From Clostridia bacterium (lineage in GTDB: Bacteria; Bacillota; Clostridia; Oscillospirales; RGIG577), in assembly GCA_017513095.1 (NCBI GenBank), contig JAFWDJ010000024.1, forward strand, positions 6,073 through 70,072: DNA of 64,000 nt, given 5' to 3'. This document shows, in pieces, positions 8,445 to 61,151 of the stretch (within the stretch, counting starts at the first letter, position 1; each line of letters starts with the position of its first letter). Made by a program: the position numbers and the translations under genes. Below the pieces are notes generated by a model, which ran no database searches, had not been told where the DNA came from, and was given only the letters and a program-made list of their open reading frames with translations.

Positions 8445-9386
8445 TTAAAGATAATGAACGCTCGGCGTTCCGAGCCTCGGCACGTTTGAAAGCGTGACGG
8501 CCAGCGAAAACACCTTCTCGTCAAAAAGCCGCGAAAAAGCGGGCTTTTTTCGTATCTCATCGACGCTTTCCCCGTGCGCGGAGGCAATTACGGCGACTCC
8601 CGTGTTGTGCGCCGTCATCACGGCGCGCGCGTCGGCTTCGTTTAAGAGCTCGTCTGTAATTATCACGTCGGGCGACATTGAGCGAAGCATAATGCTTACG
8701 CCTATGCTTTTGGGGCACATATCGAGCACGTCGGTGCGCACCCCTACATCGTTTTGCGGCTCGCCCTTATACATGGCGCAGATCTCGCTGCGCTCGTCGA
8801 TAACACCGACCTTTACACCCTTAAAGCCGAGCGTTTCGACGCCGTTTGAAAGCTGGCGCGCGATATCGCGAAGCAGCGTTGTCTTTCCGCACGACGGCGG
8901 TGAAATGACGATGACGCTTCTTACGCGGTTGTCCTTTATTATCTCGTCTATTACCGCGTCGGCGCAGCCTTTGATTTCGCGGGCTATCCTGAAATTGAGA
9001 GACGACACGTCGCGGATGCTTAAAACCCCGCCGCCGTCGGTTATCACCTTTCCGCAGACGCCGACGCGGTGACCGCCGCGAATCGTTATAAAGCCGCATC
9101 TTAGCTCCTCTAAAACGCTGTGCACGGAAGCGCCCGTTATAAATTCAAACGTCGCGGCCATGTCTTCCTTCGTGACCGTATACGGCGCGCTCGGCGGCAA
9201 ATACGCGCCGATCGGCATACAGCCCGAATCGAGCGAGATCATAACGGGCGCGCCCGTTTTAAGGCGTATTTCATACGCGCGCGCTTTTATATCGCCGGAA
9301 AGCCGCAAAAGCTGCGTTCGTATATTCGGTGCGGTGTAATCTGCCGCACGGTCGAATCTCTCGGCCTTTTCGTTTATCGCTTTCAT
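8445..9386 (-). CDS. spoIIIAA: Stage III sporulation protein AA (secretion-type ATPase)
   Basis: Walker A ISPPSCGKTTLLRDIA and Walker B-like VIITDEL. Start placed at MKAINEK (9386), preceded by AAAGGAG. The longer ORF (to 9425) would abut the ligA terminator. Confidence 0.85.
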   Translation of the reverse strand: MKAINEKAERFDRAADYTAPNIRTQLLRLSGDIKARAYEIRLKTGAPVMISLDSGCMPIGAYLPPSAPYTVTKEDMAATFEFITGASVHSVLEELRCGFITIRGGHRVGVCGKVITDGGGVLSIRDVSSLNFRIAREIKGCADAVIDEIIKDNRVRSVIVISPPSCGKTTLLRDIARQLSNGVETLGFKGVKVGVIDERSEICAMYKGEPQNDVGVRTDVLDMCPKSIGVSIMLRSMSPDVIITDELLNEADARAVMTAHNTGVAVIASAHGESVDEIRKKPAFSRLFDEKVFSLAVTLSNVPRLGTPSVHYL

Positions 9387-12770: not shown

Positions 12771-13580
12771 TCAGTAAAATCGGTGACCATAAACCCACAG
12801 TGCTTGATCAACCTTTCTGCCATCTTCGGGTTTCCTGAAGTTTATTTCCTCGTCATAGAAGTATTTTTCTAATAACCTGATATATTTAAGATATGCAGAG
12901 TCACCTTTAATGCTATCGGCTTTTTGCCGAGTAAGTAATTTTAAAAAAGCATTTTCGTTCTTATCTGGCAGAGACCTTAATGGAATGTTGCACCCTGGCA
13001 CGGCTCCTTCATCAAGCGCTTCGATAGCTTTCATTGCAAATTGGTCATAAATTGGGTAATAACCACCCGAAACAAAATATAGTATAGTTATCAAATACAC
13101 GGAGCCTACCCCAGTTATTGTTTGTTCCCCATTAACGTTCAAGACTTCTCTTAGGCGTGTGAGAAGATTCTCCGGGTTGTCATCATATGTTTCCTTATTA
13201 TCAGCATAGTCCTTTTTAAAACTATGAATATTCTGGACAAGGTATCCTATATCTATTTTCCCTTTTCTATTATTTGCCGCAAGACATTCCCCGTTCTGTC
13301 CATCATTCCAACCGTTACCTGTAAAAATATAATTGGGGTACTTGCTATCCTTATGATTTATGCGTCCCATTTTCCAGGCTAACATATGAACAATATCTGC
13401 GTCCGACCAGTCTGTTTTCGTCAATAAACAAGTGATGTCTTTCTCAATCCATTCGCAACTACGAGAAATCCTTTTTACAGTGTATTTATCTTTATCTAGA
13501 AAATAATCATTACTATATAAATCGATAAACTCTTTGCGCTCAATGGGCATGCTATTAACACTAAAAGATTGCAGTTTCAT
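12771..13580 (-). CDS. Hypothetical protein (low-GC orphan)
   Basis: 269-aa uninterrupted ORF. About 40% GC in a 60-nt spot count (13081-13140), against about 60% in neighbours. No family recognised. Confidence 0.6.
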   Translation of the reverse strand: MKLQSFSVNSMPIERKEFIDLYSNDYFLDKDKYTVKRISRSCEWIEKDITCLLTKTDWSDADIVHMLAWKMGRINHKDSKYPNYIFTGNGWNDGQNGECLAANNRKGKIDIGYLVQNIHSFKKDYADNKETYDDNPENLLTRLREVLNVNGEQTITGVGSVYLITILYFVSGGYYPIYDQFAMKAIEALDEGAVPGCNIPLRSLPDKNENAFLKLLTRQKADSIKGDSAYLKYIRLLEKYFYDEEINFRKPEDGRKVDQALWVYGHRFY

Positions 13581-13804
13581 TTTTTACTATCCTCCGTTCT
13601 ACTTTCTTAAATAGACTTTTAATGTTTTGTTCATTTATTACCTATCTTCTTTTCTCCCTTCTGTCTCCAAAATCGCGCAGCTTTTTCGCCGCCGCACATC
13701 GCTCCATACCCATATAATAACACAAAGCAACATCTTACGGCAAGCCTCACAAAGATTCACACATCCCATTCCCTGCCGGCGGACAGACGCGTTTCCGCCT
13801 CCGC

Positions 13805-14872
13805 TTACTTATACGCCCTCACCGCCGATTCAAGCGCCGCTTTCACTTCGTCCCTTAACTCCGCGGGCTCCAGCACGACGACGTCCGGCGCGTAGCTTAT
13901 CGCGAACTGCTTCATCGCAAGCCTGTTTACGCGCGCGGAGACGTCCGCGTGCGTTTCGGTCTCGTTAAAAAAGCGCACGTCCATGCCGAACATATCAATG
14001 ACGTCGCTTATCATCGCCTTTACGATGCGAAACGTTACACGCGCGTTATCGCTCGAATACATATAGACGTGCTCCGCCATGTACTTTGCGAGGTCGAAAC
14101 GCCTGCCTTGTGCGCCTTCGAGCGTGTCAAACGGCTTTACGGGCGACTCCTCGAGAATTTTTACGTCCGCTATGCGGTCAATGCGGTAATTCGATATGTC
14201 GTTATATTTGTCGTAGTTGCATATAAGGTAATACTTGCCCTCTTTGGCTGCCATCTGATAGGGGCTTACGATATACTCGCGCACGGAGCCGTCCTCTCTT
14301 ATGCGCTTGTGACGCTTTTTGTCAGCGCCGTATTCAAGATACGAAAAAGAGACCTTCCGCCCCTTCGATATTGCCTCGTCGAGCGTTTGTATCGTAAAAA
14401 ACAGCTCGGGATTCTGCGGCAGCGTATCGGGCATGGTGTAGATGTGCTTTACGTGAGCGTGAAAATACTCGCTCGAAAGCCCCTCGAGCTTTTCAACGAG
14501 CTCCCTGCACTGGTTGTATGGGATGTGCTTCGAAAAGAGAAGGCTGTCGATAAGGAGACGAAGCTCCCCTTCGGTAAAATCGCGCAGAAGATAAAAGTCG
14601 TAGAGGATATTGGCCTCCTCGGGCTCCCCGGTCCTGGGGTTCGGGATCATGCGCTTTGTTTCCTTGTATTCGATACTGTATCCGAAGTCGATAAGGTCGA
14701 GGATGTTGCGGCGAACGGCCTTGCGGTCGGCCTTCATGCCATACTCCCTTAAGAGTATGTCCTGAATCTGTTTTTGGCTGAGACAATGATTCTCGTCCGT
14801 GTATTTTTTAAAGATGTCCAGAATATTTAATATTAGGAGCTTCTTTGGCTTTTCCGTATACATTTTCGTCAC
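13805..14872 (-). CDS. WYL-domain transcriptional regulator
   Basis: 355 aa. N-terminal winged HTH (LSQKQIQDILLREYGMKADRKAVRRNI), a central WYL-type block (YYLICNYDKYNDISNYRIDRI) and a C-terminal WCX-like region. Confidence 0.8.
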   Translation of the reverse strand: MTKMYTEKPKKLLILNILDIFKKYTDENHCLSQKQIQDILLREYGMKADRKAVRRNILDLIDFGYSIEYKETKRMIPNPRTGEPEEANILYDFYLLRDFTEGELRLLIDSLLFSKHIPYNQCRELVEKLEGLSSEYFHAHVKHIYTMPDTLPQNPELFFTIQTLDEAISKGRKVSFSYLEYGADKKRHKRIREDGSVREYIVSPYQMAAKEGKYYLICNYDKYNDISNYRIDRIADVKILEESPVKPFDTLEGAQGRRFDLAKYMAEHVYMYSSDNARVTFRIVKAMISDVIDMFGMDVRFFNETETHADVSARVNRLAMKQFAISYAPDVVVLEPAELRDEVKAALESAVRAYK

Positions 14873-49123: not shown

Positions 49124-50428
49124 ATGCATGATATAGTATCCAGGATAATTTTATATAAAAGCCTGCCGGAGTTCTCGATATTAACGGGACTTTCCGGGGT
49201 GTCGTCCGCGGCGCTTTCGGGATGCGGAAATAAGGACGCTTTGAGAATAAGATTCTACGATGAGGTAAGACGCATTCTTGAGCTTGCGTCGAAATACGGC
49301 TTTGACAAAAATCTGTGGCACGATTTTCTTTCGTATCTTCTCATAATGGACGAAAATCCGCTGAGCCTTTCGTGCGAGAAGAACTCCGCGTCGCTCGGCA
49401 GCATGGCGCGCTTTGCCGAAAACGACCATCTCGCCTTCTGGCAGCTTTTCAATTACGATTTCGCGTTGCTCGAAGGTGCGCTCGGCGCCGACGTATTCTC
49501 TGTGCTGCAAAATTACGTTTCGCCCTCCGCCGGTGACTTTATGTACGACCGCGCGATAAGCGAAAAGGTCCGCCTTCTGTCGGACGCGCTTTCCGAAGCC
49601 GCGGACGCGCAGAGCTTTTCAGAGCGCATCGTAGCGTTCTACCGTCGTTACGGCGTGGGCTCGTTCGGCATGAACAAGGCCTTTCGGTTCGATACGGATT
49701 TAAACGGGAATATCGCATTCAAGCCGATAAGCAATATGGTGAAGGTCTCTTTTTCGGATATCATCGGCTATGAGATACAGAAAGAGAAGCTTATAGAGAA
49801 TACGCGCGCCTTCGTTTCGGGCAAGCGCGCGAACAACGTGCTTTTGTACGGTGACAGCGGCACGGGCAAATCGACAAGCATAAAGGCCGTCGTAAACGAA
49901 TACTACGCCGACGGACTGAGGATGATCGAGATATACAAGCACCAGTTTCGGGATTTGTCGGCGCTCATATCGCGTATAAAGCCGCGCAATTATAAGTTCA
50001 TAATCTATATGGACGACCTTTCGTTTGAGGATAACGAGACGGAATATAAATTCTTAAAGGCGGTCATCGAGGGCGGCATGGAGACCGTGCCCGATAATAT
50101 TCTCATATACGCCACCTCCAACCGACGCCATCTGATACGCGAGATATGGCGCGACCGCAACGACGTCGAGGTCACCGAGGCCGAGGTCCATCATTCCGAT
50201 ACGCTTGAGGAGAAGCTGTCGCTCGCCCACCGCTTCGGCGTGACGATAAACTTTTCAAAGCCCACGCGGGCGCAGTATATGGATATCGTATCGAAGCTTG
50301 CCGAGAAGAACGGCCTGAAAATCGACGGCGCGGAGCTTAAAAAGGAAGCCGACAGGTGGGAAATGGCCCACGGCGGCTTATCCGGACGCACGGCTCAGCA
50401 GTTTATCAATCATTTATTGGGGAAATGA
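49124..50428 (+). CDS. DUF815-type ATP-binding protein (AAA-like)
   Basis: 434 aa. Walker A GDSGTGKST and Walker B IIYMDDLSF. Resembles the DUF815 family. Confidence 0.7.
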   Translation: MHDIVSRIILYKSLPEFSILTGLSGVSSAALSGCGNKDALRIRFYDEVRRILELASKYGFDKNLWHDFLSYLLIMDENPLSLSCEKNSASLGSMARFAENDHLAFWQLFNYDFALLEGALGADVFSVLQNYVSPSAGDFMYDRAISEKVRLLSDALSEAADAQSFSERIVAFYRRYGVGSFGMNKAFRFDTDLNGNIAFKPISNMVKVSFSDIIGYEIQKEKLIENTRAFVSGKRANNVLLYGDSGTGKSTSIKAVVNEYYADGLRMIEIYKHQFRDLSALISRIKPRNYKFIIYMDDLSFEDNETEYKFLKAVIEGGMETVPDNILIYATSNRRHLIREIWRDRNDVEVTEAEVHHSDTLEEKLSLAHRFGVTINFSKPTRAQYMDIVSKLAEKNGLKIDGAELKKEADRWEMAHGGLSGRTAQQFINHLLGK

Positions 50429-50433
50429 GAAAC

Positions 50434-50471
50434 GGGGCTTATATGACAAAACTCAAAGTCATATAAGCCCC
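50434..50471. terminator. Bidirectional terminator bounding the low-GC cluster
   Basis: 14-bp perfect stem ggggcttatatgac(50434-50447)/gtcatataagcccc(50458-50471). Confidence 0.7.
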
Positions 50472-50557
50472 TTAATTATATTTACATATATGTCCTCCAA
50501 GCAAATAATCGTAAGCAACGATATAAATCATCTCTTGATATAAGTTTGAATTTTACG

Positions 50558-51328
50558 TTAGCGGCCGCCGTATTCGCTGCCATAATAGAGAACTTTTCTG
50601 TTCTCGATCTTACGATGATTAACGTCAATAATATATTCGTTTGAATATTGAGCCATCCAATATTCGCCAGACAACTTGCGATTAAGCAGTTTGTCCATCT
50701 CTTCTGATAGATATTCATAATTTGAGTTCCAAACACAAAGTTCTTCGCCGCTCAGTTCAGAATCGTTATCGTTGGCAGGCAGCACGGGATCGGATTTTAC
50801 GTATTCAATCAAGGCATGCAGCTTGTGTGATTCCCTACCTTCGCCCTGCTGTTTATAAAACTCTTCAAAAGAACTCAACAAATCATCGCATTCGATCCAC
50901 ATTGCAGAGTCGCCTGAACCGTACTTGGAATTCCGGATTACGATAGTTTCCAGATTATTCGCCGATATCCCTTGCTTTTTACAGTAATTGAGAAAACGGT
51001 TTATCTCTTTAGGAACCGCGTCTTGTAGCGGTATTTTTGGATATTCTCCATCTTCATCACATAATCCTTCAATGATTGCGGCGCTGAACAGCAGCTCGCA
51101 TAATTCTTCAAGGCTTTTTGCTGTGGATAATGATTTGCCGCCAAAACAGATCTCGCCGTTTTTAACTTCAGGAATAAGGTAAATGCTCTCCGCCGCTTCA
51201 TCTCCCCCATCTTCAGGGCTGACAGCATGCCAAAAATCCGCCATTTTCTTATTCTCGTCAATCAGATATATCTCCAGAATATAGCTTGCACTGCTCGAAT
51301 TGGTCACAAAATCCGTGCGTATTTTCAC
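50558..51328 (-). CDS. FVTNSSS-motif protein, paralog 3 (unknown function)
   Basis: 256 aa. GTG start after GAGGA. N-terminus MKIRTDFVTNSSSASYILEI is shared with the ORFs at 51988-52815 and 55027-55698. Confidence 0.75.
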   Translation of the reverse strand: MKIRTDFVTNSSSASYILEIYLIDENKKMADFWHAVSPEDGGDEAAESIYLIPEVKNGEICFGGKSLSTAKSLEELCELLFSAAIIEGLCDEDGEYPKIPLQDAVPKEINRFLNYCKKQGISANNLETIVIRNSKYGSGDSAMWIECDDLLSSFEEFYKQQGEGRESHKLHALIEYVKSDPVLPANDNDSELSGEELCVWNSNYEYLSEEMDKLLNRKLSGEYWMAQYSNEYIIDVNHRKIENRKVLYYGSEYGGR

Positions 51329-51465
51329 TTTAGGTCCTCATTTCTTTATTGAAATATTGATAAAACCAAGCACGGGGCAACGGCTGGTCCTTGAATATTA
51401 TTATATGCTGCCGCCCTTAAGACAGGCAAATCCTTTGCCAAAAACGCGCTCTCTCTCGCGGCGTA

Positions 51466-51618
51466 TCACCGTTTGTCTGCGGCGATATAAATATCGGGAG
51501 CTTTCGTATAATTTTTACGTGAGAGGTTTTGCAAAGCGCACCTTATGCAGTTCACCGGGAAACCGCAGCTCGGGCACACGCCGTCCTCCATAGGCGTACC
51601 GCAGCGCGGACAATCCAT
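51466..51618 (-). CDS. Mini zinc-ribbon protein, copy 1 (50 aa, absent from the ORF track)
   Basis: MDCPRCGTPMEDGVCPSCGFPVNCIRCALQNLSRKNYTKAPDIYIAADKR. GGAGGAG RBS 5 nt upstream. The first 24 codons are duplicated at 55749-55853, with mostly synonymous differences. Confidence 0.65.
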   Translation of the reverse strand: MDCPRCGTPMEDGVCPSCGFPVNCIRCALQNLSRKNYTKAPDIYIAADKR

Positions 51619-51635
51619 ATTTACTCCTCCTTTTC
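51547..51635 (-). repeat. About 89-nt repeat (RBS + zinc-ribbon coding start), copy 1
   Basis: About 90% identical (7 mismatches in the 72 coding nt by manual alignment) to 55782-55870. Confidence 0.8.
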
Positions 51636-51987
51636 TTAAAAATAATGCTGTTGTCGGTATATTCGTGTGAGCTTTGAATTATTATAATCAAGTGTTTTTA
51701 CACTGATTTTGCTGATATTCAACTTTGTATCCTGATATCCGCCTCTTATTCTTTTTAGGCTGCTGTATTTAGTAAACCTTATGCAGTAAAGAGACGATCG
51801 TTATTATATAATTGCTGCTTTTCTGTTCTCTCTATACCTTTGAGCACTTCTTTTCTTAACAGTCCGATCCACCGGAGCAGTTTTTTTGAAAAATCGTAAG
51901 CATAATTGCCGCGTTAAACAAATCATGGGTCTTCCGGTTGCGGCAGTTTCGGCCGCTTATTTAAGAAATTCTTCGATGGGGCGCAAT

Positions 51988-52815
51988 TCACACCCCCGCG
52001 AGCCAATCGAAAATCATCTCGAAATCATTTTCCGAAATTATAGGGATGTTAAGCTCCAAGGCTTCTTTTATTTCCGCAGTAGTAGATTTCGGATCGTTGG
52101 TTATTAAATAGTCAACATTTCTCGAAATCGTACTAACGACAGTACCGCCGAACGCATCGATAAAATCTTCTGCATCTTCTCTATAAACGCAATTTTCAGC
52201 AATAAAAAATCTTTTGCCTTTAAATGCATGTATATCTAAGCCGCTTGTCTCACTGAAAACGCTTCCGCTGCGCATATGCAAACAAATGCTTTCCCATTCT
52301 TCTTCCGCACTTCCATCGAATTTTTCATATACGTGCGGTTTGACTTCTTTGGTCAAGAGTTTTACCGTGCCGCCATAACGCACGAATTCTCCCCATGCTT
52401 TGTGTGTTTGGGTAATGGTAATGAACGAAATGTCTGATGTGTTGAAAAAAGAAGATCTTAAGGCGCTTTCAAAATCATCAAGGTCTTTAGTCATTTTTTT
52501 CAAAAAATCATCATCATATTTTTGGCTTAGTTTTTTTAAGCTTTCATTAGGACATTCTTCGTCGCTTTCCGGGTCAGTGTAATCTAAAAGCGTAACAGAA
52601 TCAGTCAGTGCTTTTGCCAAATCGGAAACAGAATCGATGCCGGTCAAAGCTTTCAGATTTGCCACATTAAAGCTTGCTTCACCGCCGCCATATGTATAGG
52701 TATCTGTAGGATCGATCTCGACCCACACTTTTTTATCATTTGGACCCATAACTTCGATTACGACGGAAAAACTGCTGCTTGAGCTGTTTGTCACAAAATC
52801 AGTTCTGAATTTCAT
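51988..52815 (-). CDS. FVTNSSS-motif protein, paralog 2, fused to a C-terminal BRCT domain
   Basis: 275 aa. N-terminus MKFRTDFVTNSSSSSFSVVIEV. C-terminus FKGKRFFIAE...GGTVVSTISRNVDYLITND...NIPIISENDF aligns with the LigA BRCT in this window. Confidence 0.8.
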   Translation of the reverse strand: MKFRTDFVTNSSSSSFSVVIEVMGPNDKKVWVEIDPTDTYTYGGGEASFNVANLKALTGIDSVSDLAKALTDSVTLLDYTDPESDEECPNESLKKLSQKYDDDFLKKMTKDLDDFESALRSSFFNTSDISFITITQTHKAWGEFVRYGGTVKLLTKEVKPHVYEKFDGSAEEEWESICLHMRSGSVFSETSGLDIHAFKGKRFFIAENCVYREDAEDFIDAFGGTVVSTISRNVDYLITNDPKSTTAEIKEALELNIPIISENDFEMIFDWLAGV

Positions 52816-52838
52816 GTTGAATCTTCCTTTCCGTTAAA

Positions 52839-53915
52839 TTATTTTGTTCTTTCTTCGCTGCCGCAGAAGACGATTTGTGGCATAAGCGGGCATCCGCCCA
52901 TGCATAAGGCTTTTTTTTCGCAGCCGGGGCAGGCCGCGCGCATTTTATCGCGGAAACGCTCGAAGGGCTCGCTGTTCCACGCGTCTTCGATTGAAACTTC
53001 TTCGCCAAGCCGTACCTCATAGCGTTTATTCTGGTCGAAGGAGCACGGCACCATGACCATATCCGCGCCGATGTAGCAGCTGAAGCGCCCGCCCTCGCAC
53101 GTATCGAGAGACTCGGGCATGATGCGTTTGCAGAAGTTCAGCGCGCCGGGCACGTTGCAGGAGTCCATGCCCACCTTGAATGAATGGTGCTTGTCTACCT
53201 GAGAAAAGAACTTGGCCACGCGGGGATCGTTAACGTCCAGCACGTTTGACTGTGACCCCTGTCCCGCCGGCTTGTGCAGAAGAAAGATCACCGCGTTGAT
53301 TCCCTGAGGAAAGTCGTCTCGCTCGAGCCTGTCGATGGCCTCGTCGATGCTGTTCCGGCCGAGTACGTAGTGGATATTTGTCTTCACGCCCGCACAAAGC
53401 AGCATCCGAACGGCGTTTAGTGTATACTCGCTTCGATACCAGCTTACAGCGACTGCGCCGCAATACTTTTTGCAGAGAGCGGCAATTTCCGGCGTCATGC
53501 CGTAGCCTGAGGTCGTGAAGTTTGGTACAAGGCAGTTTTCCCGGCTGATGCGCAGCAGGTCTTCAAAATGTTCGTGCTGATCGGGGTCGCCCCTGCCGCC
53601 CAGCGCAAGCTGGTTGCAGCGGCCGCGGCACTGCTTTGCAATCAGACGGAAGTTTTCAACCGTCATATTGGGCTGCTCCACCAAAAGACCGCTCTGATAG
53701 CACCCGATGCCGGCCTTTGCGCAGAGACCCGTTCTGCCGTGGATGCAGTGCCCCATAACACCGACGTCGATAAGATGCGGAAACGACGCCATAAACGGAT
53801 CGACTCCGGTGTCGCGCCCGTTTTCGTCAAGCACGCCCGTGCGTATATATGCGCCCGTGTCGGTGTCAAAGGCGGATTTAAAATGATATTTCTTGTCGTC
53901 GATTATGTATTTCAT
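52839..53915 (-). CDS. Radical SAM/SPASM-domain enzyme with non-canonical N-terminal Cys spacing
   Basis: 358 aa. CIHGRTGLCAKAGIGC (Cx7Cx6C) where CxxxCxxC is expected. GGE-like ALGGRGDP and TNG-like NFTTSGYG. SPASM Cys pattern CEGGRFSCYIGADMVMVPC...CPGCEKKALCMGGCP. Confidence 0.75.
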   Translation of the reverse strand: MKYIIDDKKYHFKSAFDTDTGAYIRTGVLDENGRDTGVDPFMASFPHLIDVGVMGHCIHGRTGLCAKAGIGCYQSGLLVEQPNMTVENFRLIAKQCRGRCNQLALGGRGDPDQHEHFEDLLRISRENCLVPNFTTSGYGMTPEIAALCKKYCGAVAVSWYRSEYTLNAVRMLLCAGVKTNIHYVLGRNSIDEAIDRLERDDFPQGINAVIFLLHKPAGQGSQSNVLDVNDPRVAKFFSQVDKHHSFKVGMDSCNVPGALNFCKRIMPESLDTCEGGRFSCYIGADMVMVPCSFDQNKRYEVRLGEEVSIEDAWNSEPFERFRDKMRAACPGCEKKALCMGGCPLMPQIVFCGSEERTK

Positions 53916-53971
53916 TTATTCAAATCTCCCTCGTTTTCTTTCCGATATATTCTCTGCCGCCCTTTTTTGTT

Positions 53972-55012
53972 TCATTCCTGAGTCGAATCAGACGGCGTCA
54001 GATACTGCGCGATAAACTCCTGCTCGCTGATAATAGGAATGCCGTCTGATTGTGCTTTACGTATCTTTGTTGTGCCTGAGTCCGGAAAATTGGTGATAAG
54101 AGCAGTCGTTTTGGAGGATACGCTTCCGCTCAGCTTTCCGCCGTTATGGAGAATTATCTCTTTTAACGCATCCCTGCTTGAAAAATTGAACAGATCGCCT
54201 GTGACGACAAAGGTCTTTCCCGAAAGTTTTTCAAATTCTCCTAAGAGCGCTGCATTAAGCCCTTGAAAGGAAAAAGATATCTTTCCCGAAAGCTTTTCAG
54301 ATTCTCCGGATGAAATGTTTACGGCCTTCTGTTTTTTCGGTTTTTCCGGCGGAACATAAAATACTTCGTTTTCGGGATAATGAATTTCGATAGTTTTGTA
54401 AGGAGCGGTCAGCCGTTTCTTCGGGTAAGGTTTGGAAGGCACGATTTCATCTGAGCACATTTGTTTTTTTCCGTCAAAAAGCACGTAGTCCTGCCTCTCC
54501 CACATGGGCTTTTCTTTAAACTCGTAAAGCTTCCCTTTGATTCTGAAGCTGTCCTCAGTCGGATCGTGAATAATACTCCATCTGTCACGAGCATAAAAAT
54601 CACACGTGTCAATGTAACGCATAACGGTAACAGAAGGATATCCGCTCTCAGAGTACGCAAGGTAGACAGTTCTGTTTTTCCAGTCTTCCGCGAAAAATAC
54701 CGCCTTCATATATGGATAATTTTCCAGCACATAAGGCACATGTGCGCTTTCGCATTCAAATTGAGCAATTCCATCGCATAACGTGTCTATTATCTTCCCG
54801 GGATTATCGTTATCGGGCCAGATTGTCCTGACCGCATCCAGTACGTCGAATTCCAATCCTCTGAAAACAGCCCCTGAGAAATAAGCAGTTTTCTCATATT
54901 GCTCTTTTGCGGCGGCGTCGGTAGAACCTGCTGTAAACGGGCACATCCTGCCTTCCGAAGTAAGCCTTTCAATAAATGCGTCTTTCTTTTCTTTTGCAGT
55001 ACTGTAATTCAT
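53972..55012 (-). CDS. Unknown N-terminal domain + C-terminal BRCT domain protein
   Basis: 346 aa. C-terminus LSGKTFVVTGDL...GGKLSGSVSSKTTALITN...GIPIISEQEF closely parallels the LigA BRCT (FTVVVTGTL...[18 protein letters not shown]...[10 protein letters not shown]). Confidence 0.8.
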   Translation of the reverse strand: MNYSTAKEKKDAFIERLTSEGRMCPFTAGSTDAAAKEQYEKTAYFSGAVFRGLEFDVLDAVRTIWPDNDNPGKIIDTLCDGIAQFECESAHVPYVLENYPYMKAVFFAEDWKNRTVYLAYSESGYPSVTVMRYIDTCDFYARDRWSIIHDPTEDSFRIKGKLYEFKEKPMWERQDYVLFDGKKQMCSDEIVPSKPYPKKRLTAPYKTIEIHYPENEVFYVPPEKPKKQKAVNISSGESEKLSGKISFSFQGLNAALLGEFEKLSGKTFVVTGDLFNFSSRDALKEIILHNGGKLSGSVSSKTTALITNFPDSGTTKIRKAQSDGIPIISEQEFIAQYLTPSDSTQE

Positions 55013-55026
55013 TATAATCCCCCCTG

Positions 55027-55698
55027 TTAAACCAAATCAAAATCTGATGTATCAAAGTATTCGCCGGTTCTCAGGTTCAGTCGTTTTATCTCTACGCCGC
55101 TTACGCGTCCCGGACCATATGAGCTGCACAGACGTTTTGCGAGCGTTTCCAAAGACCGACCGCCCCAATTATAACGACATACAGCCGCATTTCCGAATGA
55201 TTCTCCAATTGCGTCCGAAACTGTATTGATGTATGTTACCATTTCTGCTTCGGCACGCATTTTTTCTATTCCGGTCTGGGCTTTAAGATACTTTTGGGCC
55301 AGTTCAATGAGTATTATGTCGTTGTCTGCAATAATATCCGCCATCTCTCCCCATGCGTCGTAGCGTCGCTTCACCGTTATTTCGACAATATCCCGAACGC
55401 TGTTGAACTTAGTGCATGCTTCTCTTATAAATCTTTCCTTTTTACGGCGCAGCGGGTATGAGTCCGTGCTTTCCCAGTAATCATGAATTGAGCCTGCAAG
55501 CCATGTCGCCAGCTCGTTCACGGAAGAAAGGTGAGAATTGATGTTTTTCAAATCTCCGTTAAAAACCATTGTGGAGCCTCCGTCTGAGGTCTGCCTGTTC
55601 TCCGAAATGCTGACATATCGATTTGGCGAGCTGATCATAACCTCCACTGTAAAATTGCTTGAACTGGAATTTGTCACAAAGTCTGTGCGTATTTTCAT
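55027..55698 (-). CDS. FVTNSSS-motif protein, paralog 1 (unknown function)
   Basis: 223 aa. ATG after GGAGG. N-terminus MKIRTDFVTNSSSSNFTVEVMI. Shares an I-x-I-x(n)-WGE block with paralog 2. Confidence 0.75.
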   Translation of the reverse strand: MKIRTDFVTNSSSSNFTVEVMISSPNRYVSISENRQTSDGGSTMVFNGDLKNINSHLSSVNELATWLAGSIHDYWESTDSYPLRRKKERFIREACTKFNSVRDIVEITVKRRYDAWGEMADIIADNDIILIELAQKYLKAQTGIEKMRAEAEMVTYINTVSDAIGESFGNAAVCRYNWGGRSLETLAKRLCSSYGPGRVSGVEIKRLNLRTGEYFDTSDFDLV

Positions 55699-55748
55699 TA
55701 TACCTGCCTCCTTGCCTTTCTAAATATGCTGTAAAACCGTGTTTTCTC

Positions 55749-55853
55749 TTACGCTTTGTCCTGAACTTTTAATTCTGCGTGACAATTCACCGGGAAACCG
55801 CAGTTAGGGCAAACGCCGTTCTCCATAGGCGTACCGCAGCGCGGGCAATCCAT
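55749..55853 (-). CDS. Mini zinc-ribbon protein, copy 2 (34 aa, absent from the ORF track)
   Basis: MDCPRCGTPMENGVCPNCGFPVNCHAELKVQDKA. GGAGGA RBS. Lies 50 nt upstream of paralog 1. Confidence 0.65.
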   Translation of the reverse strand: MDCPRCGTPMENGVCPNCGFPVNCHAELKVQDKA

Positions 55854-55870
55854 AAGTATTCCTCCTTTTT
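55782..55870 (-). repeat. About 89-nt repeat, copy 2
   Basis: See 51547-51635. Confidence 0.8.
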
Positions 55871-55953
55871 GGTTAAAAATGCGGCAATTTAGCCTTAGTA
55901 TTTATTTTGTATCATCGTCCGTGAGCGCATCTTCTTCATAGAGGCCAAGGGAT

Positions 55954-57285
55954 TCAAAGCTTTTTCAGCATTTCTAACGCATTACGGTCGCCGCCCTCAG
56001 CGCCTCTCTTGATCCACGCCTTTGCAATAGTTTCATCTCTCTTAACACCGTCTCCGCGACCATACATAAGTCCCAGGTTTGTCTGGGCCTGCGGAAATCC
56101 CAGTTCTGCTCCCCGCCGGTACCACTGAACCGCCGCCGCTTTGTTGACTGCAACGCCGCGTCCTTTCTCATAGCACAAGCCTAGCATCCACATTGCTTTC
56201 GCACTGCCTCCTTCTGCAGCTTTTTTTGCCCATCGGATGCCGTCCTGATAGTCTATCGCGCTGTCTCCGTCGCTGATGCAAATGCCAAGAGATATATACG
56301 ATTCCGCAATATCCGTCTGCGCGTTTATATCCCCGCTCTCTGCAACGGTTTTCCGTTCGAGGATCGATCGGATTATTTCTGTTAAATTCAGCGCATCATT
56401 ATCTCCGGCTTCAGCCGCCCGGGATATATACTCTTCGGCTTTTGCCAGATTTCGCGGGACGCCGAGTCCCCTTTCGTACATCAGCCCTATGTTGAAAATG
56501 GCGTCTCTGTCATTACGTTCTGCTAGACGATCAAACCAGAGCTTTGCTTTCCTGTAGTCCTGTTTCAAACCATTTATCCTCTTGAAATAAGAGATCGCAA
56601 GATTTGTCATAGCATAGATGTTTCCATACGGAGCAAGGCGCATGGATTCTTCCAGCGTTGTCGGTCGATATTCCTCATTTTCCCGACCGTCAGTGCTTTC
56701 CGCAATTGTATTTGATAGTTCAATCGCAATATTCACCAATCCCTTTTCGATCAGATTGACGCCGAGTGCGGAGTAATACGCTTCGGAAATCGCATCTGAA
56801 TAAATAATCAGATGGTTATCCGAAGCAGGAAGCGCAGACAACGCTTTGATCGCCGCAGGCAGAAAATCCAGTTCCCGTTTCTTTCCCAGCTTCAAGGAGA
56901 GATCGCCCTCCCATGCGGGAGCCTGTCCTTTGGCACGGACAGTATGCAAGCTGCATCCATGTTCCGTAATCGCAAGAGCATAGAAGATACAAGCCAGCGT
57001 TTTTGAGATCTCCTCCTTCGATGGCATTGTTTCCCGCACATAGGCGCTCAAAGCAATAGGGATGCGATCGAGGGTATTGTAATCTAAAGCAAAGCATTGA
57101 TCCTGCCCAAGCGCCTGAATTTCCGATTGCAGAAAGAGGGACAGGTACCGTCCCATGATCGCCTCTCCCTGTACGGCAACAGGCTGTTTCGGTAGCTGCA
57201 ACCAATGCTCTTTGTGTAATTCGTATTGATTTAGTATTTTCTCTATCGCTTCGTTTGGGGTCAGAAGGGACATCCATTCTCTCAT
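55954..57285 (-). CDS. Sel1-repeat (SLR/TPR-like) protein
   Basis: 443 aa. The C-terminal half holds several Sel1 repeats (AIFNIGLMYERGLGVPRNLAKAEEYISRAAEAG; AMWMLGLCYEKGRGVAVNKAAAVQWYRRGAELG; AQTNLGLMYGRGDGVKRD...). Confidence 0.8.
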   Translation of the reverse strand: MREWMSLLTPNEAIEKILNQYELHKEHWLQLPKQPVAVQGEAIMGRYLSLFLQSEIQALGQDQCFALDYNTLDRIPIALSAYVRETMPSKEEISKTLACIFYALAITEHGCSLHTVRAKGQAPAWEGDLSLKLGKKRELDFLPAAIKALSALPASDNHLIIYSDAISEAYYSALGVNLIEKGLVNIAIELSNTIAESTDGRENEEYRPTTLEESMRLAPYGNIYAMTNLAISYFKRINGLKQDYRKAKLWFDRLAERNDRDAIFNIGLMYERGLGVPRNLAKAEEYISRAAEAGDNDALNLTEIIRSILERKTVAESGDINAQTDIAESYISLGICISDGDSAIDYQDGIRWAKKAAEGGSAKAMWMLGLCYEKGRGVAVNKAAAVQWYRRGAELGFPQAQTNLGLMYGRGDGVKRDETIAKAWIKRGAEGGDRNALEMLKKL

Positions 57286-57376
57286 AATCTTACACCTCGT
57301 TTTAAGTAATTAAGCGCGATTCTCATCTGCATTAAAATCCGTCTTTTAGGTATTTCTGCTTAACCGGATAATATAT

Positions 57377-58231
57377 CTACTCTGAAACCAGAGTATCAAA
57401 ATATTCATCCTCGAATTCTTCTCTGCTCTTTATCCCCAGTTCTTTTATACGCTCCACCGCATTTTTAAACGATTCTTCATCTATTTTTACCGGGAATATC
57501 TCGGTAAACTCACTTAAACTGAGCTCAAACAATTTTCTCTCTCCAAACAATTCTTCAATAGAATCGTAGTAATAATTTTCATAATCATCACTATCGAATT
57601 CAAATAGTTTTTTGAACTTTTCATAAGAAAGTATGTCTGCAACATAATCGAAATAGGCAGAATCGAAATAGTCACTATCGGGGTCTGCCCATATCGTTAC
57701 CACTAACGGAATCATCGGCAGTGGGCCCGAATATTTGGTGTATGAGGAGAATGATTTGGTTTTTGGATCGTAAAACCTTCCCCAAATCCCTTCACTATCA
57801 TCATCTTCTTCATTCTCTTGGAGGTCCTCTCCAAATGGCTTGTAGTCGAAGCTTAAGAATAACCGTCCGTCCTTAAGCTCCGCATCTAAAGATTGTTTTG
57901 AACCGGGATCAAATCCTGAAATTGATCCTCTAAAATAACAGGTGGGCGCTGTGTCAGCAATTCTTTGGAAAAGGTCACAATCATCCTCGAGAAGACCGTA
58001 CCAGACTCCATACGGACCGCTGAGACCTAAAGACATTTCTCCCGATTTCCAGCATGTGTCTACTTCCTTTTCAGGATCGCCTATCGTTACATCCAAATAC
58101 CAGCAGTCGTGTTTTTCTCTGTATTGCTTTTTCCGATCATTTGCGTAATGCCTAAGCACCTTCATAACCTCCAGACACTCTTCTTTTGTTCCCTTAACGG
58201 TAATCACCGTTGTAAAATCAGCTGCTCCCAT
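57377..58231 (-). CDS. Acidic hypothetical protein (first gene of the low-GC cluster)
   Basis: 284 aa. GGAGG RBS. Asp/Glu/Tyr/Phe-rich C-terminal half. About 40% GC in a spot count. No family recognised. Confidence 0.65.
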   Translation of the reverse strand: MGAADFTTVITVKGTKEECLEVMKVLRHYANDRKKQYREKHDCWYLDVTIGDPEKEVDTCWKSGEMSLGLSGPYGVWYGLLEDDCDLFQRIADTAPTCYFRGSISGFDPGSKQSLDAELKDGRLFLSFDYKPFGEDLQENEEDDDSEGIWGRFYDPKTKSFSSYTKYSGPLPMIPLVVTIWADPDSDYFDSAYFDYVADILSYEKFKKLFEFDSDDYENYYYDSIEELFGERKLFELSLSEFTEIFPVKIDEESFKNAVERIKELGIKSREEFEDEYFDTLVSE

Positions 58232-58496
58232 GTTAATACCTCCATCAGTTTATTCTGATTGATTTTTATCGCACCATTATTATACAAAATCGAGTTAGAC
58301 AGAACCTGTCCATGTGATATACATTTTCAAAAAATTTTAGCAATTATAAATATTTTTTCATGATTCCAATTAGCTGTATGCTCGTTTACGGCGGCTCTTA
58401 ATTCTGATGAGATAAATTGACGTGTTAAACCGTCGTTACAAATATCCGACTATAATTATACTCCAAATTCCGAAAAAACCAGATTTTTGACTTAAT

Positions 58497-58536
58497 ACAA
58501 AAAAGAAGTGCGGCCGATTGGCCGCACCCTTTTTGA
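58497..58536. terminator. Bidirectional terminator between the PolC-like gene and the low-GC cluster
   Basis: Stem gtgcggcc(58508-58515)/ggccgcac(58520-58527), with an A-run upstream and a T-run downstream. Confidence 0.6.
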
Positions 58537-58578
58537 GCGCATATTAACCTTAAAATAATTTGGTTTCGCCGCGGTTTC

Positions 58579-61151
58579 CTATCGATCCAAGCGTTTCGCC
58601 CTATACGGCACGCGGATGCTGCCGTTTTCGGGGACGAAACGCTCCGCGTGGGACGCGTTTTTGTCGGCAGGAAGGAATGAAATGCCAGAGTCGTAGCATT
58701 CCAGGGCAAGCTTCAGGATTTTTATACGTTCCGACTCAATACATCTTTCGCCCTGCTTTCCCACAATTCGATTATACTCCTCATAGGCGCGCGCGCGGCC
58801 TTCGGCGAGGACGCCGTAGAGGACGCCGTAATCGAATTTTGGCTCATCAAACTCATCAATGCACGAAAGAACGGCGGCAAAGAACGCGGCGGGGCGGTTT
58901 ATTCTGTACCATACCTTCCTGAGATCGTTTATCACGGATCCGATCGCGTGCGCCTTTGGAAAAAGATAATATATCTCCCTCATCGATGCGATTAACCGTT
59001 CGGGGACGCCGTGTTGCTTCATTATTTCAAGCTGACTTTCATCAAAGCCGTGACGCGCCCTGCCCATTCTCACGTATTGTGCTATGGAATACGCGTCTTT
59101 TCGTCCTACTCCGTATCTCATCAGAGAAAGCATGACGTCCTCGCGAAACGCGATAGGCCCGCCGCAGTCGGCGCACGCCCCGATAAGCTCTCCGGGATCG
59201 TCGGAGCGGTCGAAGACGCCGTGATCAAAGCCAAAGATATTTACAAGGTCGGAGAATTTTGTCGGCTTTACGGCGGAGATAAATCTTTTAAAACTCTCCG
59301 AGCCGAAAGAAATGCCCTCAAGACTTGCGGCGCCGAAATACGAGGCGAAATCTATATCGCCAATATCAATGCTTTCTGCCGGCACGCCCGAATACTCTTC
59401 CATAAGCTTAAGCTCCGAAAAAAGCGTAAAGTCGTACATACATATTCTTTCAAGTGGGAGATAACGACAATCAATAAGCGTTATAGGCTTGACTTTGCCG
59501 CAAGAGCGTGACAGATACGTGTACCGTGTCGGTGAAAAGTCGGATATATCATATCCCCGGGGAACGATGAGAAAGGCTCCGGGGTGTCGGCCGCCCGCTA
59601 CATGCACCGACGCCATTTTTTTGACAATGCGTTCTCTTTGTCCGAGGCCTATGGACGTATTCGTTTCTTCGCAGTATTTATCTACCAGATCCGAAATACA
59701 CCGCTCGCCCATCCGTCCGTAAATCGTAGACTCCGAACCGGCGAGAACCGTGTTGTTCCTGCCGAACACCTCTTCAAGGCAATCAAGAATTTCCGTTCGG
59801 ATATCTTCGGCAAAGTTAAAATAAAACTCAGGTGATATGTCCCCTTCGTACCCGGTGAAGAATTCGCACGGGAGATTATGCCCGTCGCCCGTGTAAGGTG
59901 TGCCGCAGTCGGGACAAAGGCGCCTTTCGACGCCGAAGGTGACAAGATCGTATCCCGAGGCGCACTCCGTCTCATCGACGAATTCTACCCTTTTGCAATT
60001 CGGGCAGAAATAATGCGGCGGCAGAGGATTTGTCTCCGTTATGCCCAAAAGATACGAAACGAACGAACTTCCGACGCATCCGCTAAGCTTGTGAATATAG
60101 CCTTTACCGCGGCTTTTGTCGGACATTTTCGCCGCAAGCAGATAGTGTGACCAGCCGTCCGAACTGTCAATCTTTTCGAACTCGTCCGCTATGCGCAGGC
60201 GTATGATATCCGGCGCCGCTTCGCCGTATTTTTCGGCGGAGGCACTCAGAGCGCGCGATATGACCTTGCTTCGCGCGTAAGGAAGACAGAGCGTCGGCTT
60301 TTCAAACGGGAGCGGGTCGAAGCTTTCGACCGCTTCCGCGATGAGGTTCGTGTTTTCTATGACCGCCGTTTCCGTCATATCCCCAAGGAACGCAAAATCG
60401 CGAAGCATCTCCTCGGTCGACTTCATAAAGGCGATATTTTCATCCTGCCCGTCCTTCTGATGGAGGATCTTAAAGCAGAGCTCGTCTTCCTTTGTTATGC
60501 AGTTCGCGCGGCTTACCGCGGCGGGATGTTTTCCGATGCTCTGAAGGACGCGGACTGCCGCGAGTGCCGCCTCTTTGAGCGCGGCCCCGTCCGCTTCCTC
60601 TGACGAAACCGCCGAAAGCGCGCTTTTTGGGGGCAAGGTGATCTCTGCGTAATCGACGCCGTCAAATAGGACGAAAGCTCGCGCCGGACGTCAGCTTCGC
60701 TTTTATTTACGAAGCTTTGTATATGATCCCACGTGCATTCCCTGCCGATGAGAACGTCCTCTTTGTATTTGAGCACCAAATCCCAATCGATGTACGGCCG
60801 TTGATCGTTTTTAAGGTCCGTCGCCGCTTTTCGGTAACCGGCCGAAATGATAAGGTACACGTTTCTTAATCCGTGCCTCGTTTTGGCAAGCAGTGTTATA
60901 AAGAATTCGCCGCCGTTTTTGTCATGGCATAAAAGCCGCACGCCGAAAATGGCCTTGATTCCCGCATTCGCGCTTTTAACGGCTTCTGAAAGCTTTAAAA
61001 CGGAATGCACGGAGTCGAAATCTGTTATCGCCACGGCGTTTGAGCCGTTTTTTACTGCGAAATCCACGACGTCATCGGGCGTTATCACCGTTTCCCGGTA
61101 TCCGAAGCAGGAGCTTACGCCAAGCTCGATATGTCTTTTTTCGTTTGCCAT
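58579..61151 (-). pseudogene. Truncated, frameshifted PolC-like (PHP + Pol III alpha) paralog
   Basis: Two overlapping ORFs (60513-61151 and 58579-60636). PolC-type zinc module PPHYFCPNCKRVEF...CPDCGTPYTGDGHNLPCEFF. Colinear with PolC to the C-terminus (YLFPKAHAIGSV...ISFLPAD). No exonuclease, OB or N-terminal domains. The reading frame changes near 60671-60690. Confidence 0.7.

Follow-up and report, generated by a model that had tools for sequence, protein, structure and literature searches.

A radical-SAM/SPASM enzyme linked to divergent proteins with a common N-terminal tag: a candidate mobile maturation module in a Clostridia contig

The window analyzed here is a stretch of 64,000 nucleotides (nt) from the Clostridia bacterium contig JAFWDJ010000024.1 (positions 6,073–70,072 of the forward strand). 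It contains a cluster of nine open reading frames (ORFs), A to I in order of transcription, all on the minus strand and bounded by two strong hairpins. One of them, F, is a radical S-adenosylmethionine (rSAM) enzyme with a SPASM domain, and three others, D, G, and I, begin with the same short peptide, which we call the tag; tagged proteins are referred to below as clients. The gaps between successive ORFs, from A through to I, measure 91, 100, 50, 14, 56, 23, 369, and 137 nt, and a GGAGG-like ribosome-binding site precedes each of the nine. None of the nine contains a hydrophobic segment, and all products are predicted to be soluble. A first-pass annotation of this DNA had placed nine same-strand ORFs here, with Sel1 repeats in B, BRCT domains in E and G, SPASM in F, and zinc ribbons in C and H; our analysis recovers the same ORFs and agrees with these assignments.

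F (52839–53915, minus strand) is a protein of 358 amino acids (aa) and the conserved anchor of the module described here. It scores above the Pfam SPASM threshold (PF13186, 30.2 bits; cut-off 21.5) and reaches that of NCBIfam (TIGR04085, 27.0 bits; cut-off 27), and generic SPASM is the only family model that it matches in the Pfam, NCBIfam, PADLOC, and PHROG scans. Its C-terminal cysteines, C273, C280, C291, C329-x2-C332-x5-C338-x3-C342, and C351, are invariant in six close homologs, and C273, C291, C329, C332, and C338 are still invariant in a wider alignment. By the curated thresholds and this cysteine signature, F is classed as a SPASM-domain member. When a profile of the F family is compared with solved structures, the best match is SuiB (5v1q, E = 1e-6, residues 64–341), followed by PqqE, BtrN, the anaerobic sulfatase-maturating enzyme anSME (4k36/4k37, E about 0.009, in the SPASM region), and SkfB, which is matched over residues 52–292; TIGR04317 aligns to F residues 64–159.

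The segment LALGGRGDP in F is conserved and supplies a SAM-binding-type motif (GGxGDP). The cluster loop is non-canonical, reading C57-x7-C65-x6-C72 rather than CX3CX2C. This arrangement is invariant among close homologs; in the family at large C57 and C72 stay constant and the middle cysteine changes its position. The aligned loop is a canonical CDKGCVFC in a 36%-identical Agrobacterium homolog and a Cx8CxxC in RB16. By the GGxGDP motif and the similarity of its core, F is assigned to the rSAM enzymes; any ligation of a [4Fe-4S] cluster would fall to the non-canonical loop. Homologs of F form 4396 clusters at 90% identity (E ≤ 1e-5). Across Clostridia, Eggerthellaceae, Bacteroidales, and Anaerolineaceae they are 65–87% identical to F, and an exact copy from a Clostridia metagenome-assembled genome is named “SPASM domain-containing protein [Clostridia bacterium]” in NCBI.

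The three tagged proteins, all encoded on the minus strand, are D (223 aa, 55027–55698), G (275 aa, 51988–52815), and I (256 aa, with a GTG start, 50558–51328). G begins MKFRTDFVTNSSSSSF and comprises the tag, a body, and a C-terminal BRCT domain (E = 2e-10, 41.2 bits; Pfam cut-off 21.3), while the N terminus of I is MKIRTDFVTNSSSASY. A 39-nt repeat family (D2) marks the tag-coding segments of all three genes, corresponding to codons 1–17, at 55648–55698 in D, 52765–52815 in G, and 51278–51328 in I. The first-pass annotation had described D, G, and I as paralogs of an FVTNSSS family. The common start on which that description relied, M-K-x-R-T-D-F-V-T-N-S-S-S, is indeed invariant among them, but their overall identity is 25–27%, and they are better described, as far as their sequences indicate, as different proteins with a common 16-residue tag. 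The tag peptide of the module is MKIRTDFVTNSSSSSF; as a synthetic peptide it would read MKIRTDFVTNSSSSNFTV.

Tag conservation extends far beyond the window. The consensus of 182 unique tagged proteins is M-K-[I>F>V]-R-x-D-[F>Y]-V-T-N-S-S-S-S-S-[F>Y]-[VI]. D itself has 81 unnamed homolog clusters, and in an alignment of 45 D homologs residues M1, K2, R4, D6, F7, V8, T9, N10, S11, S12, and S13 are invariant against a mean column identity of 26%. An exhaustive profile search with a hidden Markov model (HMM) of the D family returned 3168 clusters at 50% identity, and in nearly all proteins listed the match begins at residue 1. Some of these proteins reach 800 aa and carry BRCT, HIRAN, LRR_5, or DUF6273 behind the tag. 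The tag codons vary synonymously, with four codons each for Val and Thr, AGR or CGN for Arg, and exchange of TCN and AGY for Ser; because synonymous codons vary so freely, the constraint acts on the peptide and not on the DNA or RNA.

The AlphaFold model of D is confident overall, with a predicted local distance difference test (pLDDT) score of 93.4 and a predicted template modeling score of 0.87, and residues 1–10 average a pLDDT of 56. In this model residues 1–10, which lie in the best-conserved part of D, probably form a flexible tail ahead of the first β strand. The D fold has no significant Foldseek match in the PDB or BFVD, and profile searches of the D-family alignment, and of an alignment of the X domain of E described below, against PDB sequences gave matches at chance level only. 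No Pfam, NCBIfam, PADLOC, or annotated PHROG family covers D, I, A, or the N-terminal 230 residues of E.

The tag behaves as a modular element. Removal of residues 1–22 from 176 tagged proteins leaves 34 groups with no BLAST link between them at E ≤ 1e-3, and many phage tagged proteins align to the D-family profile at HMM positions 1–20 only. Client lengths elsewhere range from 90 to 1062 aa. BRCT is the commonest partner domain, present in 11 of 53 long clients, with LRR_5 in 8, a β-propeller in 4, and HIRAN and TIR in 1 each. In pairs of loci whose enzymes are 85%–90% identical, the best-matching clients have a median identity of 16%, about what the tag alone would give. Client turnover, by this comparison, is far faster than that of the enzyme.

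Tag and enzyme show a possible trace of joint change. In five loci every tag has Gly in place of Asp at position 6, and the enzyme substitution K67Q occurs in two of these five loci versus 2 of 106 others (Fisher p = 0.009, a value that ignores kinship); one Gly6-locus enzyme with K67Q also has R196H and several changes in its N-terminal 40 residues. We take this pattern as a hint of enzyme-tag co-evolution and do not count it as proof.

Gene linkage between enzyme and tag was assessed in species-representative genomes searched with F alone, which gave 80 loci with enzymes 65–87% identical to F. These come from Oscillospiraceae, Acutalibacteraceae, Lachnospiraceae, Eggerthellaceae, Bacteroidales, Erysipelotrichaceae, and Anaerolineaceae, and include a cultured carrier, Acetatifactor muris DSM 23669 (Lachnospiraceae, locus L064). 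A locus was taken to hold the module when an ORF starting M-K-x-R-x-D-[FY]-V-T-N-S-S lay on the same strand as an F-type enzyme and about 2 kb or less from it; the window has three ORFs with this start. A tagged ORF is present in 76 of the 80 enzyme-seeded loci, and in 54 of 56 where at least 1.5 kb of sequence is available on both sides. The nearest tagged ORF begins no more than 100 nt downstream of the enzyme in 65 of the 80 loci and no more than 100 nt upstream in 6; of 103 tagged ORFs, 101 lie on the strand of the enzyme. The number of tagged genes is two to four in 18 of the 80.

The linkage also holds in the reverse direction. In all nine look-ups seeded with a tagged protein, a SPASM gene was found on the same strand, either next to the tagged gene or no more than 3 kb away. 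At loci of D homologs, the SPASM partners are 356–360 aa long and 74–82% identical to F, and the tagged partners are 30–60% identical to D. The canonical layout is a tagged gene directly after the enzyme, represented in the window by G, which starts 23 nt past F. The D-E pair of the window in turn mirrors a pair found downstream of the enzyme in L001 and L012–L014, in which a tagged gene is followed by a BRCT protein. As judged from these neighborhoods, the conserved unit is a two-part one, composed of the rSAM/SPASM enzyme and one or more tagged proteins, and not the nine-gene block that the first-pass annotation had treated as a whole.

The same two parts occur together in viruses. The viral set comprises 28 IMG/VR contigs of up to 244 kb that carry a relative of the enzyme, 46–58% identical to F with two exceptions at 79%. 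On 26 of the 28, the enzyme is accompanied by one to six tagged ORFs, most often in arrays of three to six; these encode proteins of 90–260 aa that all start MK[IVFY]RxDFVTNSSSSS[FY]. The enzyme and the tagged families are the sole conserved neighbors at the viral loci. Phage copies sit among replication and nucleotide/NAD genes, including those for DNA polymerase, primase-helicase, LigA, NAMPT, NAD synthetase, RNA ligase, and a Thg1-like enzyme. When ten phage clients, along with the Agrobacterium client introduced below, were scanned against Pfam and PHROG, no family emerged except LRR_5 in one and a weak N-terminal match to phrog_7397.

One phage client family of about 198 aa is present in 16 of the 28 viral loci (among L097–L121; for example, L109 14978–15571 and L105 12763–13359). 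Its tag is followed immediately by CxICG...CxNxHxxC...CPIC, a probable zinc-binding module, and it is usually the last member of the tagged array. At L117 (8429–10789), and also at L119, the phage rSAM gene is split by an insertion of about 428 aa with the hallmarks of an intein: it starts with Cys, contains two LAGLIDADG-like motifs, and ends in SHN followed by Cys, and the insertion site lies immediately before GGxGD. In eight loci (L098, L101, L104, L109, L111, L113, L116, and L122) the genes around the module include, together with those named above, genes for a tRNA-His guanylyltransferase-like protein and a reverse transcriptase; the region as a whole is rich in functions tied by others to counter-defense.

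On the Agrobacterium tumefaciens plasmid pAt2 (L124, NZ_CP048524.1 23045–36040), a 131-aa protein starting MKIKLDFVSNSSSTSF is encoded directly upstream of the enzyme, here the 36%-identical “radical SAM protein” with the canonical CDKGCVFC loop. Neighbors on this conjugative plasmid include an SMEK-domain protein, an RHE_PE00001-family protein, and a site-specific integrase. The T4-like phages RB16, RB43, KP15, and Miller were considered as members and rejected, as their rSAM is 27% identical to F and has no tagged ORF nearby. This full-length 27%-identical protein (phrog_7293, function unassigned) is found in RB16 (L123) and 166 other T4-like records, among small hypothetical genes and with no tagged ORF in any of them; the Straboviridae that carry it infect Klebsiella, Enterobacter, Citrobacter, Cronobacter, and E. 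coli.

The remaining genes of the cluster recur beside the module to varying degrees. E (53972–55012, minus strand; 346 aa) combines a conserved domain, termed X, with a BRCT domain at residues 261–334 (E = 6e-14, 52.5 bits; cut-off 21.3). It is 46%–48% identical to the C-terminal ∼340 aa of BRCT proteins of 1172 and 1261 aa encoded after the tagged gene in L001 and L012, and the X domain also ends a 685-aa partner in L004–L006. An AlphaFold model of the X domain built from five sequences was poor (pLDDT 56), and its Foldseek matches to sliding clamps, at E > 0.1, were discarded as meaningless. The linker before the BRCT domain of E contains a 66-nt internal duplication (54214–54307; 28-nt repeats at 93% identity), such that “EKLSGK” appears twice; the 25-aa insert with this motif is missing from the orthologous modules in L001 and L012.

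A (57377–58231, minus strand) is an acidic protein of 284 aa with an isoelectric point of 4.3 and no family match. Its N-terminal ∼130–160 residues recur at 29–40% identity beside the module in L001 and L016; in L019 they lie past the tagged array, about 3.6 kb downstream of the enzyme. B (55954–57285, minus strand; 443 aa) is a Sel1-repeat protein (Pfam E = 2e-38), with Sel1 homologs 0.2–8 kb from the enzyme in L040, L049, L073, L077, and L082, in four of them at about 3 kb or less. The BRCT, E-type, Sel1, and A-type domains thus appear, from their distribution, to be recurrent but optional accessories of the module. The two zinc-ribbon mini-ORFs, C (55749–55853, minus strand; 34 aa, CxxC...CxxC), upstream of D, and H (51466–51618, minus strand; 50 aa), upstream of I, are 74% identical to each other. 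An 87-nt direct repeat at 90% identity (51548–51634 and 55783–55869) covers the ribosome-binding site and first 24 codons of both, with mostly synonymous differences. A search upstream of the tagged genes in all other loci found no zinc-ribbon mini-ORF, so that the window is the only place where they were seen.

The cluster differs sharply from its flanks in composition, as the first-pass annotation had suspected. Its GC content is 0.446 versus 0.516 for the rest of the window, about 8 standard deviations (SD) under other 8-kb windows (170 equal-sized windows outside the cluster; minimum 0.491, SD 0.0086), and in tetranucleotide composition it stands 0.030 away from the rest of the window, versus a maximum distance of 0.013 elsewhere. 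The spot counts on which the suspicion was based are exact, at 0.40 for 57421–57480 and 0.617 for 8461–8520. GC content at third codon positions is 0.69 in F, 0.57–0.59 in C and H, and 0.38–0.51 in A, B, D, E, G, and I, with B highest at 0.51. The high value for F bears out the earlier remark that the rSAM gene looks host-like, but the inference of a mosaic assembled from separate sources does not follow: in 34 of 34 loci the enzyme gene is richer in GC than the client genes, and the GC content of both follows that of the flanks (r = 0.91 and 0.88). Because the same pattern holds in every one of these loci, the mosaic composition is intrinsic to the module and is not evidence of separate origin. 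A second low-GC patch in the window, at 13001–14000, has a GC content of 0.426 and a strongly negative GC skew of −0.258 in a 1-kb composition profile.

The hairpin at the upstream edge of the cluster (58497–58536) has folding energies of −20.0 and −22.3 kcal/mol on the two strands and T-runs on both sides, and a consensus scan scores it as a terminator on both strands. The 14-bp perfect hairpin at the downstream edge (50434–50471) folds with −22.8 and −23.4 kcal/mol; its T-tract is weak, and the same scan does not call it a terminator. Of the two strong bidirectional terminators proposed earlier, both therefore fold strongly on both strands, but only the upstream one is recognized as such. 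Ordinary host genes flank the cluster: a DUF815 ATPase and an aminotransferase on one side and, on the other, a PHP/Pol III-alpha gene broken by a frameshift, RtcB, and a class II aminoacyl-tRNA synthetase. The frameshifted gene consists of a PHP-domain ORF (60513–61151) and a Pol III-alpha NTPase-domain ORF (58579–60636) that overlap by 124 nt in different frames; it is a truncated DnaE/PolC-like gene. Neither RtcB nor a split PolC/DnaE-like gene recurs beside the module at other loci; their adjacency, which had been offered as functional context, looks incidental. As reported before, no integrase is visible in the cluster or in the eight flanking genes scanned, which make up part of the window, and no flanking direct repeats or att-like sites were found in 50400–58600.

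Elsewhere, Pfam matches among the neighbors of the module point to mobile elements (tyrosine and serine recombinases, ParA/ParB, RepA_N, a relaxase, a NikA-like protein, and transposases) and to defense-type functions (BrxL, TIR, HIRAN, UvrD, Mrr, GmrSD, a Type I R-subunit-like helicase, and SbcCD). From these settings, the module is read as mobile cargo that lands in varied places, on integrative/conjugative elements and large phages. A role in conflict between mobile elements, phages, and hosts is plausible because clients are replaced rapidly, carriage extends to phages and integrative/conjugative elements, and the partners include TIR, LRR, BRCT, and HIRAN domains; it could take the form of defense, counter-defense, or establishment. 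SbcD/SbcC-like gene pairs (Metallophos with AAA_23/SbcC) were seen in two unrelated loci, just downstream of the last tagged gene in L133 (3870–7771) and a few kb downstream of the module in L001 (17966–20678), and may represent another link to DNA ends.

We interpret the cluster as one copy of a mobile two-part module in which F is a dedicated rSAM/SPASM maturase that modifies the tag of swappable clients, here D, G, and I, and we place this interpretation slightly on the favorable side of even. An enzyme-substrate relation is the simplest explanation because a conserved enzyme is linked, near-obligatorily, to a strictly N-terminal peptide on otherwise unrelated bodies. The flexible tag would enter F as peptide substrates enter other SPASM enzymes, and the 5′-deoxyadenosyl radical of F would then modify it, thereby maturing the clients. 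Candidate chemistries are an anSME-like oxidation of a Ser, Thr, or Asn side chain and an aromatic-to-Cβ cross-link within three residues such as F7-V8-T9. The client bodies, together with fused or adjacent BRCT, HIRAN, LRR_5, β-propeller, and TIR domains, would supply target binding or effector activity on DNA ends or proteins, and E (X plus BRCT), B (Sel1), and A (acidic) may serve as optional accessories of the same module. More tentatively, and with rather more doubt than belief on our part, the modified tag could be universal to an exchanged repertoire of conflict proteins, which it would arm as a reactive warhead or assemble as a docking epitope. BRCT domains might then read the tag or deliver the protein to DNA ends of invader or host; the S13-x-x-[FY]16 spacing of the tag recalls the pS-x-x-F/Y ligands of eukaryotic BRCT repeats.

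Several observations weigh against maturation of the tag by F or against the conflict role attached to it. Gene linkage fits a substrate and a binding partner equally, and it is from such indirect data that we infer tag modification. Cys and Trp, on which the best-known SPASM cross-linkers act, are both missing from the tag, and its chemistry would need to be of another type. Residues 13–17 are modeled as the start of β strand 1, so part of the tag may be structural, and the co-variation with the enzyme is carried by few lineages, those of the five Gly6 loci. On the enzyme side, the missing CX3CX2C motif is accompanied by the lack of a match between F itself and Pfam Radical_SAM (PF04055), a model that is on record for two ∼85%-identical homologs, P0235 and P0287. 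No recognition element (RRE) of the kind used by enzymes of peptides made on the ribosome and modified after translation (RiPPs), or PqqD-like leader-binding domain, was detected in F, which has 56 residues before its first cysteine; in these respects, F resembles protein-acting anSME more than leader-dependent RiPP enzymes.

As to context, when the two closest large ORFs to either side were surveyed without bias in 27 loci (107 ORFs), few defense matches appeared, namely DruE-like, SngC, PglZ, a DRT reverse transcriptase, and SoFic, along with several housekeeping genes; the commonest nearest neighbor was LRR_5, in 10 of the 107 ORFs. PADLOC-DB 2.0 does not recognize the cluster as a defense system, and the conflict role rests on context. 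E and G match PDLC05027 of the candidate system PDC-S48 (E = 1.6e-10 and 1.8e-7) within the C-terminal BRCT region only (profile positions 329–406 of 411), and all other hits have E > 0.02. The defense role proposed in the first-pass annotation is not borne out as it was put: PADLOC gives nothing beyond the BRCT region, the neighbors are mixed, and phages carry the module too.

The main rival, which we consider unlikely, takes the tag to be a docking handle: clients would be adaptors that bring F to its targets, at DNA ends via BRCT or HIRAN and on proteins via LRR, Sel1, or β-propeller domains, and the enzyme would be the effector. The linkage and modularity data fit this as well as they fit maturation of the tag, the client domains are binding modules and not enzymes, and the pairing of one conserved enzyme with many fast-changing partners is like that of swappable specificity subunits. 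However, SPASM enzymes of established function, with SuiB, PqqE, anSME, and SkfB the nearest solved relatives, act on the peptide or protein to which they bind; many phage clients are just 100–200 aa, with no recognizable binding domain; and no nucleic-acid-modifying rSAM signature was found for F in NCBIfam. It is considerably less probable that the tag is a Ser-rich ligand or cofactor loop, an anion- or nucleotide-binding nest, and that F makes a small molecule which clients bind or use. A β strand followed by a T-N-S-S-S-S loop does resemble phosphate-binding loops, the invariant Asp6, Asn10, and Ser run could coordinate a ligand, and viperins, which are rSAM enzymes of immunity, make nucleotide analogs. 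Yet the motif occurs in at least 34 groups unlinked by BLAST, often as their sole common segment, where a binding site would normally need a whole fold; in addition, residues 1–10 have low model confidence, SPASM points to peptide or protein substrates, and no viperin-type similarity was found for F.

We attach very little weight to a RiPP-type cluster, in which each tagged ORF would encode a precursor that carries its leader at the N terminus and, once modified, is cleaved and exported. A RiPP precursor has a conserved leader and a short, variable core, whereas clients here are 223–275 aa and elsewhere 90–1062 aa, D folds at a pLDDT of 93, and many clients contain BRCT, LRR, or HIRAN. Pfam and NCBIfam reveal no RRE, protease or peptidase, or exporter or ABC transporter among the nine ORFs, no NCBIfam RiPP rSAM model comes near its cut-off, and the phage copies lie in replication regions. 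What remains in its favor is the arrangement itself, an rSAM/SPASM gene beside several ORFs with a conserved N terminus and variable remainder, as at loci with one enzyme and many precursors, and the position of SuiB as nearest solved relative. Least credible of all is the absence of any system, with low-GC cargo piled up by chance and the common N terminus acting as a translation-initiation or DNA-level element. A, B, C, and H are indeed absent from most related loci and the neighborhoods are heterogeneous, but this reading is contradicted by the enzyme-tag linkage, which 76 of 80 loci from several phyla show and which extends to phages, and by the synonymous codon variation, which places selection on the peptide and not on the DNA; homologs of E, A, and Sel1 also recur beside the module.

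Maturation of the tag by F would have a close counterpart in the action of anSME/AtsB on sulfatases, where the target of the rSAM/SPASM enzyme is a short motif within a full-size protein and not a small peptide, and where there is no separate RRE; oxidation of a Ser or Cys side chain is the chemistry of anSME. The differences are that the cluster has neither a sulfatase nor a (C/S)xPxR motif, that F scores 13.2 bits against TIGR03942 (cut-off 349), and that the motif of the module lies at the extreme N terminus of dozens of unrelated mobile-element and phage proteins. SuiB/StrB (Lys-Trp), PqqE, SkfB, and the cyclophane synthases (“triceptides”) resemble the module in that one enzyme serves a conserved sequence common to several adjacent ORFs. 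RiPP rSAM/SPASM enzymes cross-link three-residue aromatic-X-X motifs (PMC11851443, PMC11499958), to which F7-V8-T9 and F16-x-x of the tag bear a suggestive resemblance. In contrast to RiPP substrates, the clients are folded and reach 1062 aa, and the 16-residue conserved element precedes a functional protein and not a short core.

In the VMAP (vWA-MoxR) ternary conflict systems, an rSAM-SPASM enzyme has been predicted to modify a peptide with an FxSxx motif (Kaur, Burroughs, Iyer and Aravind 2020, PMC7159879). That motif lies in a C-terminal peptide released by a metallopeptidase and is coupled to vWA, MoxR, and AP-ATPase components (PMC7159879), whereas the motif of the module is N-terminal on intact multi-domain proteins. 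The nine ORFs contain no vWA, MoxR, AP-ATPase, or peptidase domain, and DUF2201/AAA pairs in L008 and L012 are several genes away from the module and not conserved. The internal proteins of phage T4 carry an N-terminal capsid-targeting peptide that is read by the prohead and its protease. They are similar in bearing a short conserved N-terminal peptide on small, polymorphic phage proteins exchanged in arrays, but the tag of the module is also found in chromosomal and conjugative loci, and its phage arrays lie in replication rather than structural regions. The likeness to PADLOC PDC-S48 is confined to the BRCT region of E and G; no other component matches.

The earlier view of an undescribed system stands, since no family, PADLOC, or PHROG function covers the FVTNSSS proteins, A, or the N-terminal domain of E, the genes co-occur widely outside this genome, and the composition departs from that of the flanks; none of the three outcomes named in the first-pass annotation as refuting it was observed. 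Neither the annotations of Pfam, NCBIfam, PADLOC, and PHROG nor the searchable literature yielded a description of the motif, of the family, or of the gene pair, the partial exception being the distinct FxSxx system (PMC7159879). The module is nevertheless abundant across several phyla of gut and rumen anaerobes, in large phages, and on one Agrobacterium plasmid, without a family model or a name beyond “SPASM domain-containing protein.” Were the tag to be modified, radical-SAM chemistry would act on a whole repertoire of folded proteins via a portable tag, which is rare outside sulfatase maturation, and the tag might serve as an enzyme-installed protein label. Such a system would also bring a new principle to phage-host and plasmid-host conflict, with one conserved maturase and many swappable BRCT, HIRAN, LRR, or TIR clients. 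Because their defining features were tested for and found absent, the system is, on present sequence data, distinct from a RiPP cluster, an anSME/sulfatase pair, a PADLOC-listed defense system, and VMAP processing. Its known kind would be rSAM/SPASM-dependent post-translational maturation, within which it stands apart because the tag is portable and sits at the N terminus of full-size proteins, because one enzyme has many clients, and because phages and mobile elements carry it.

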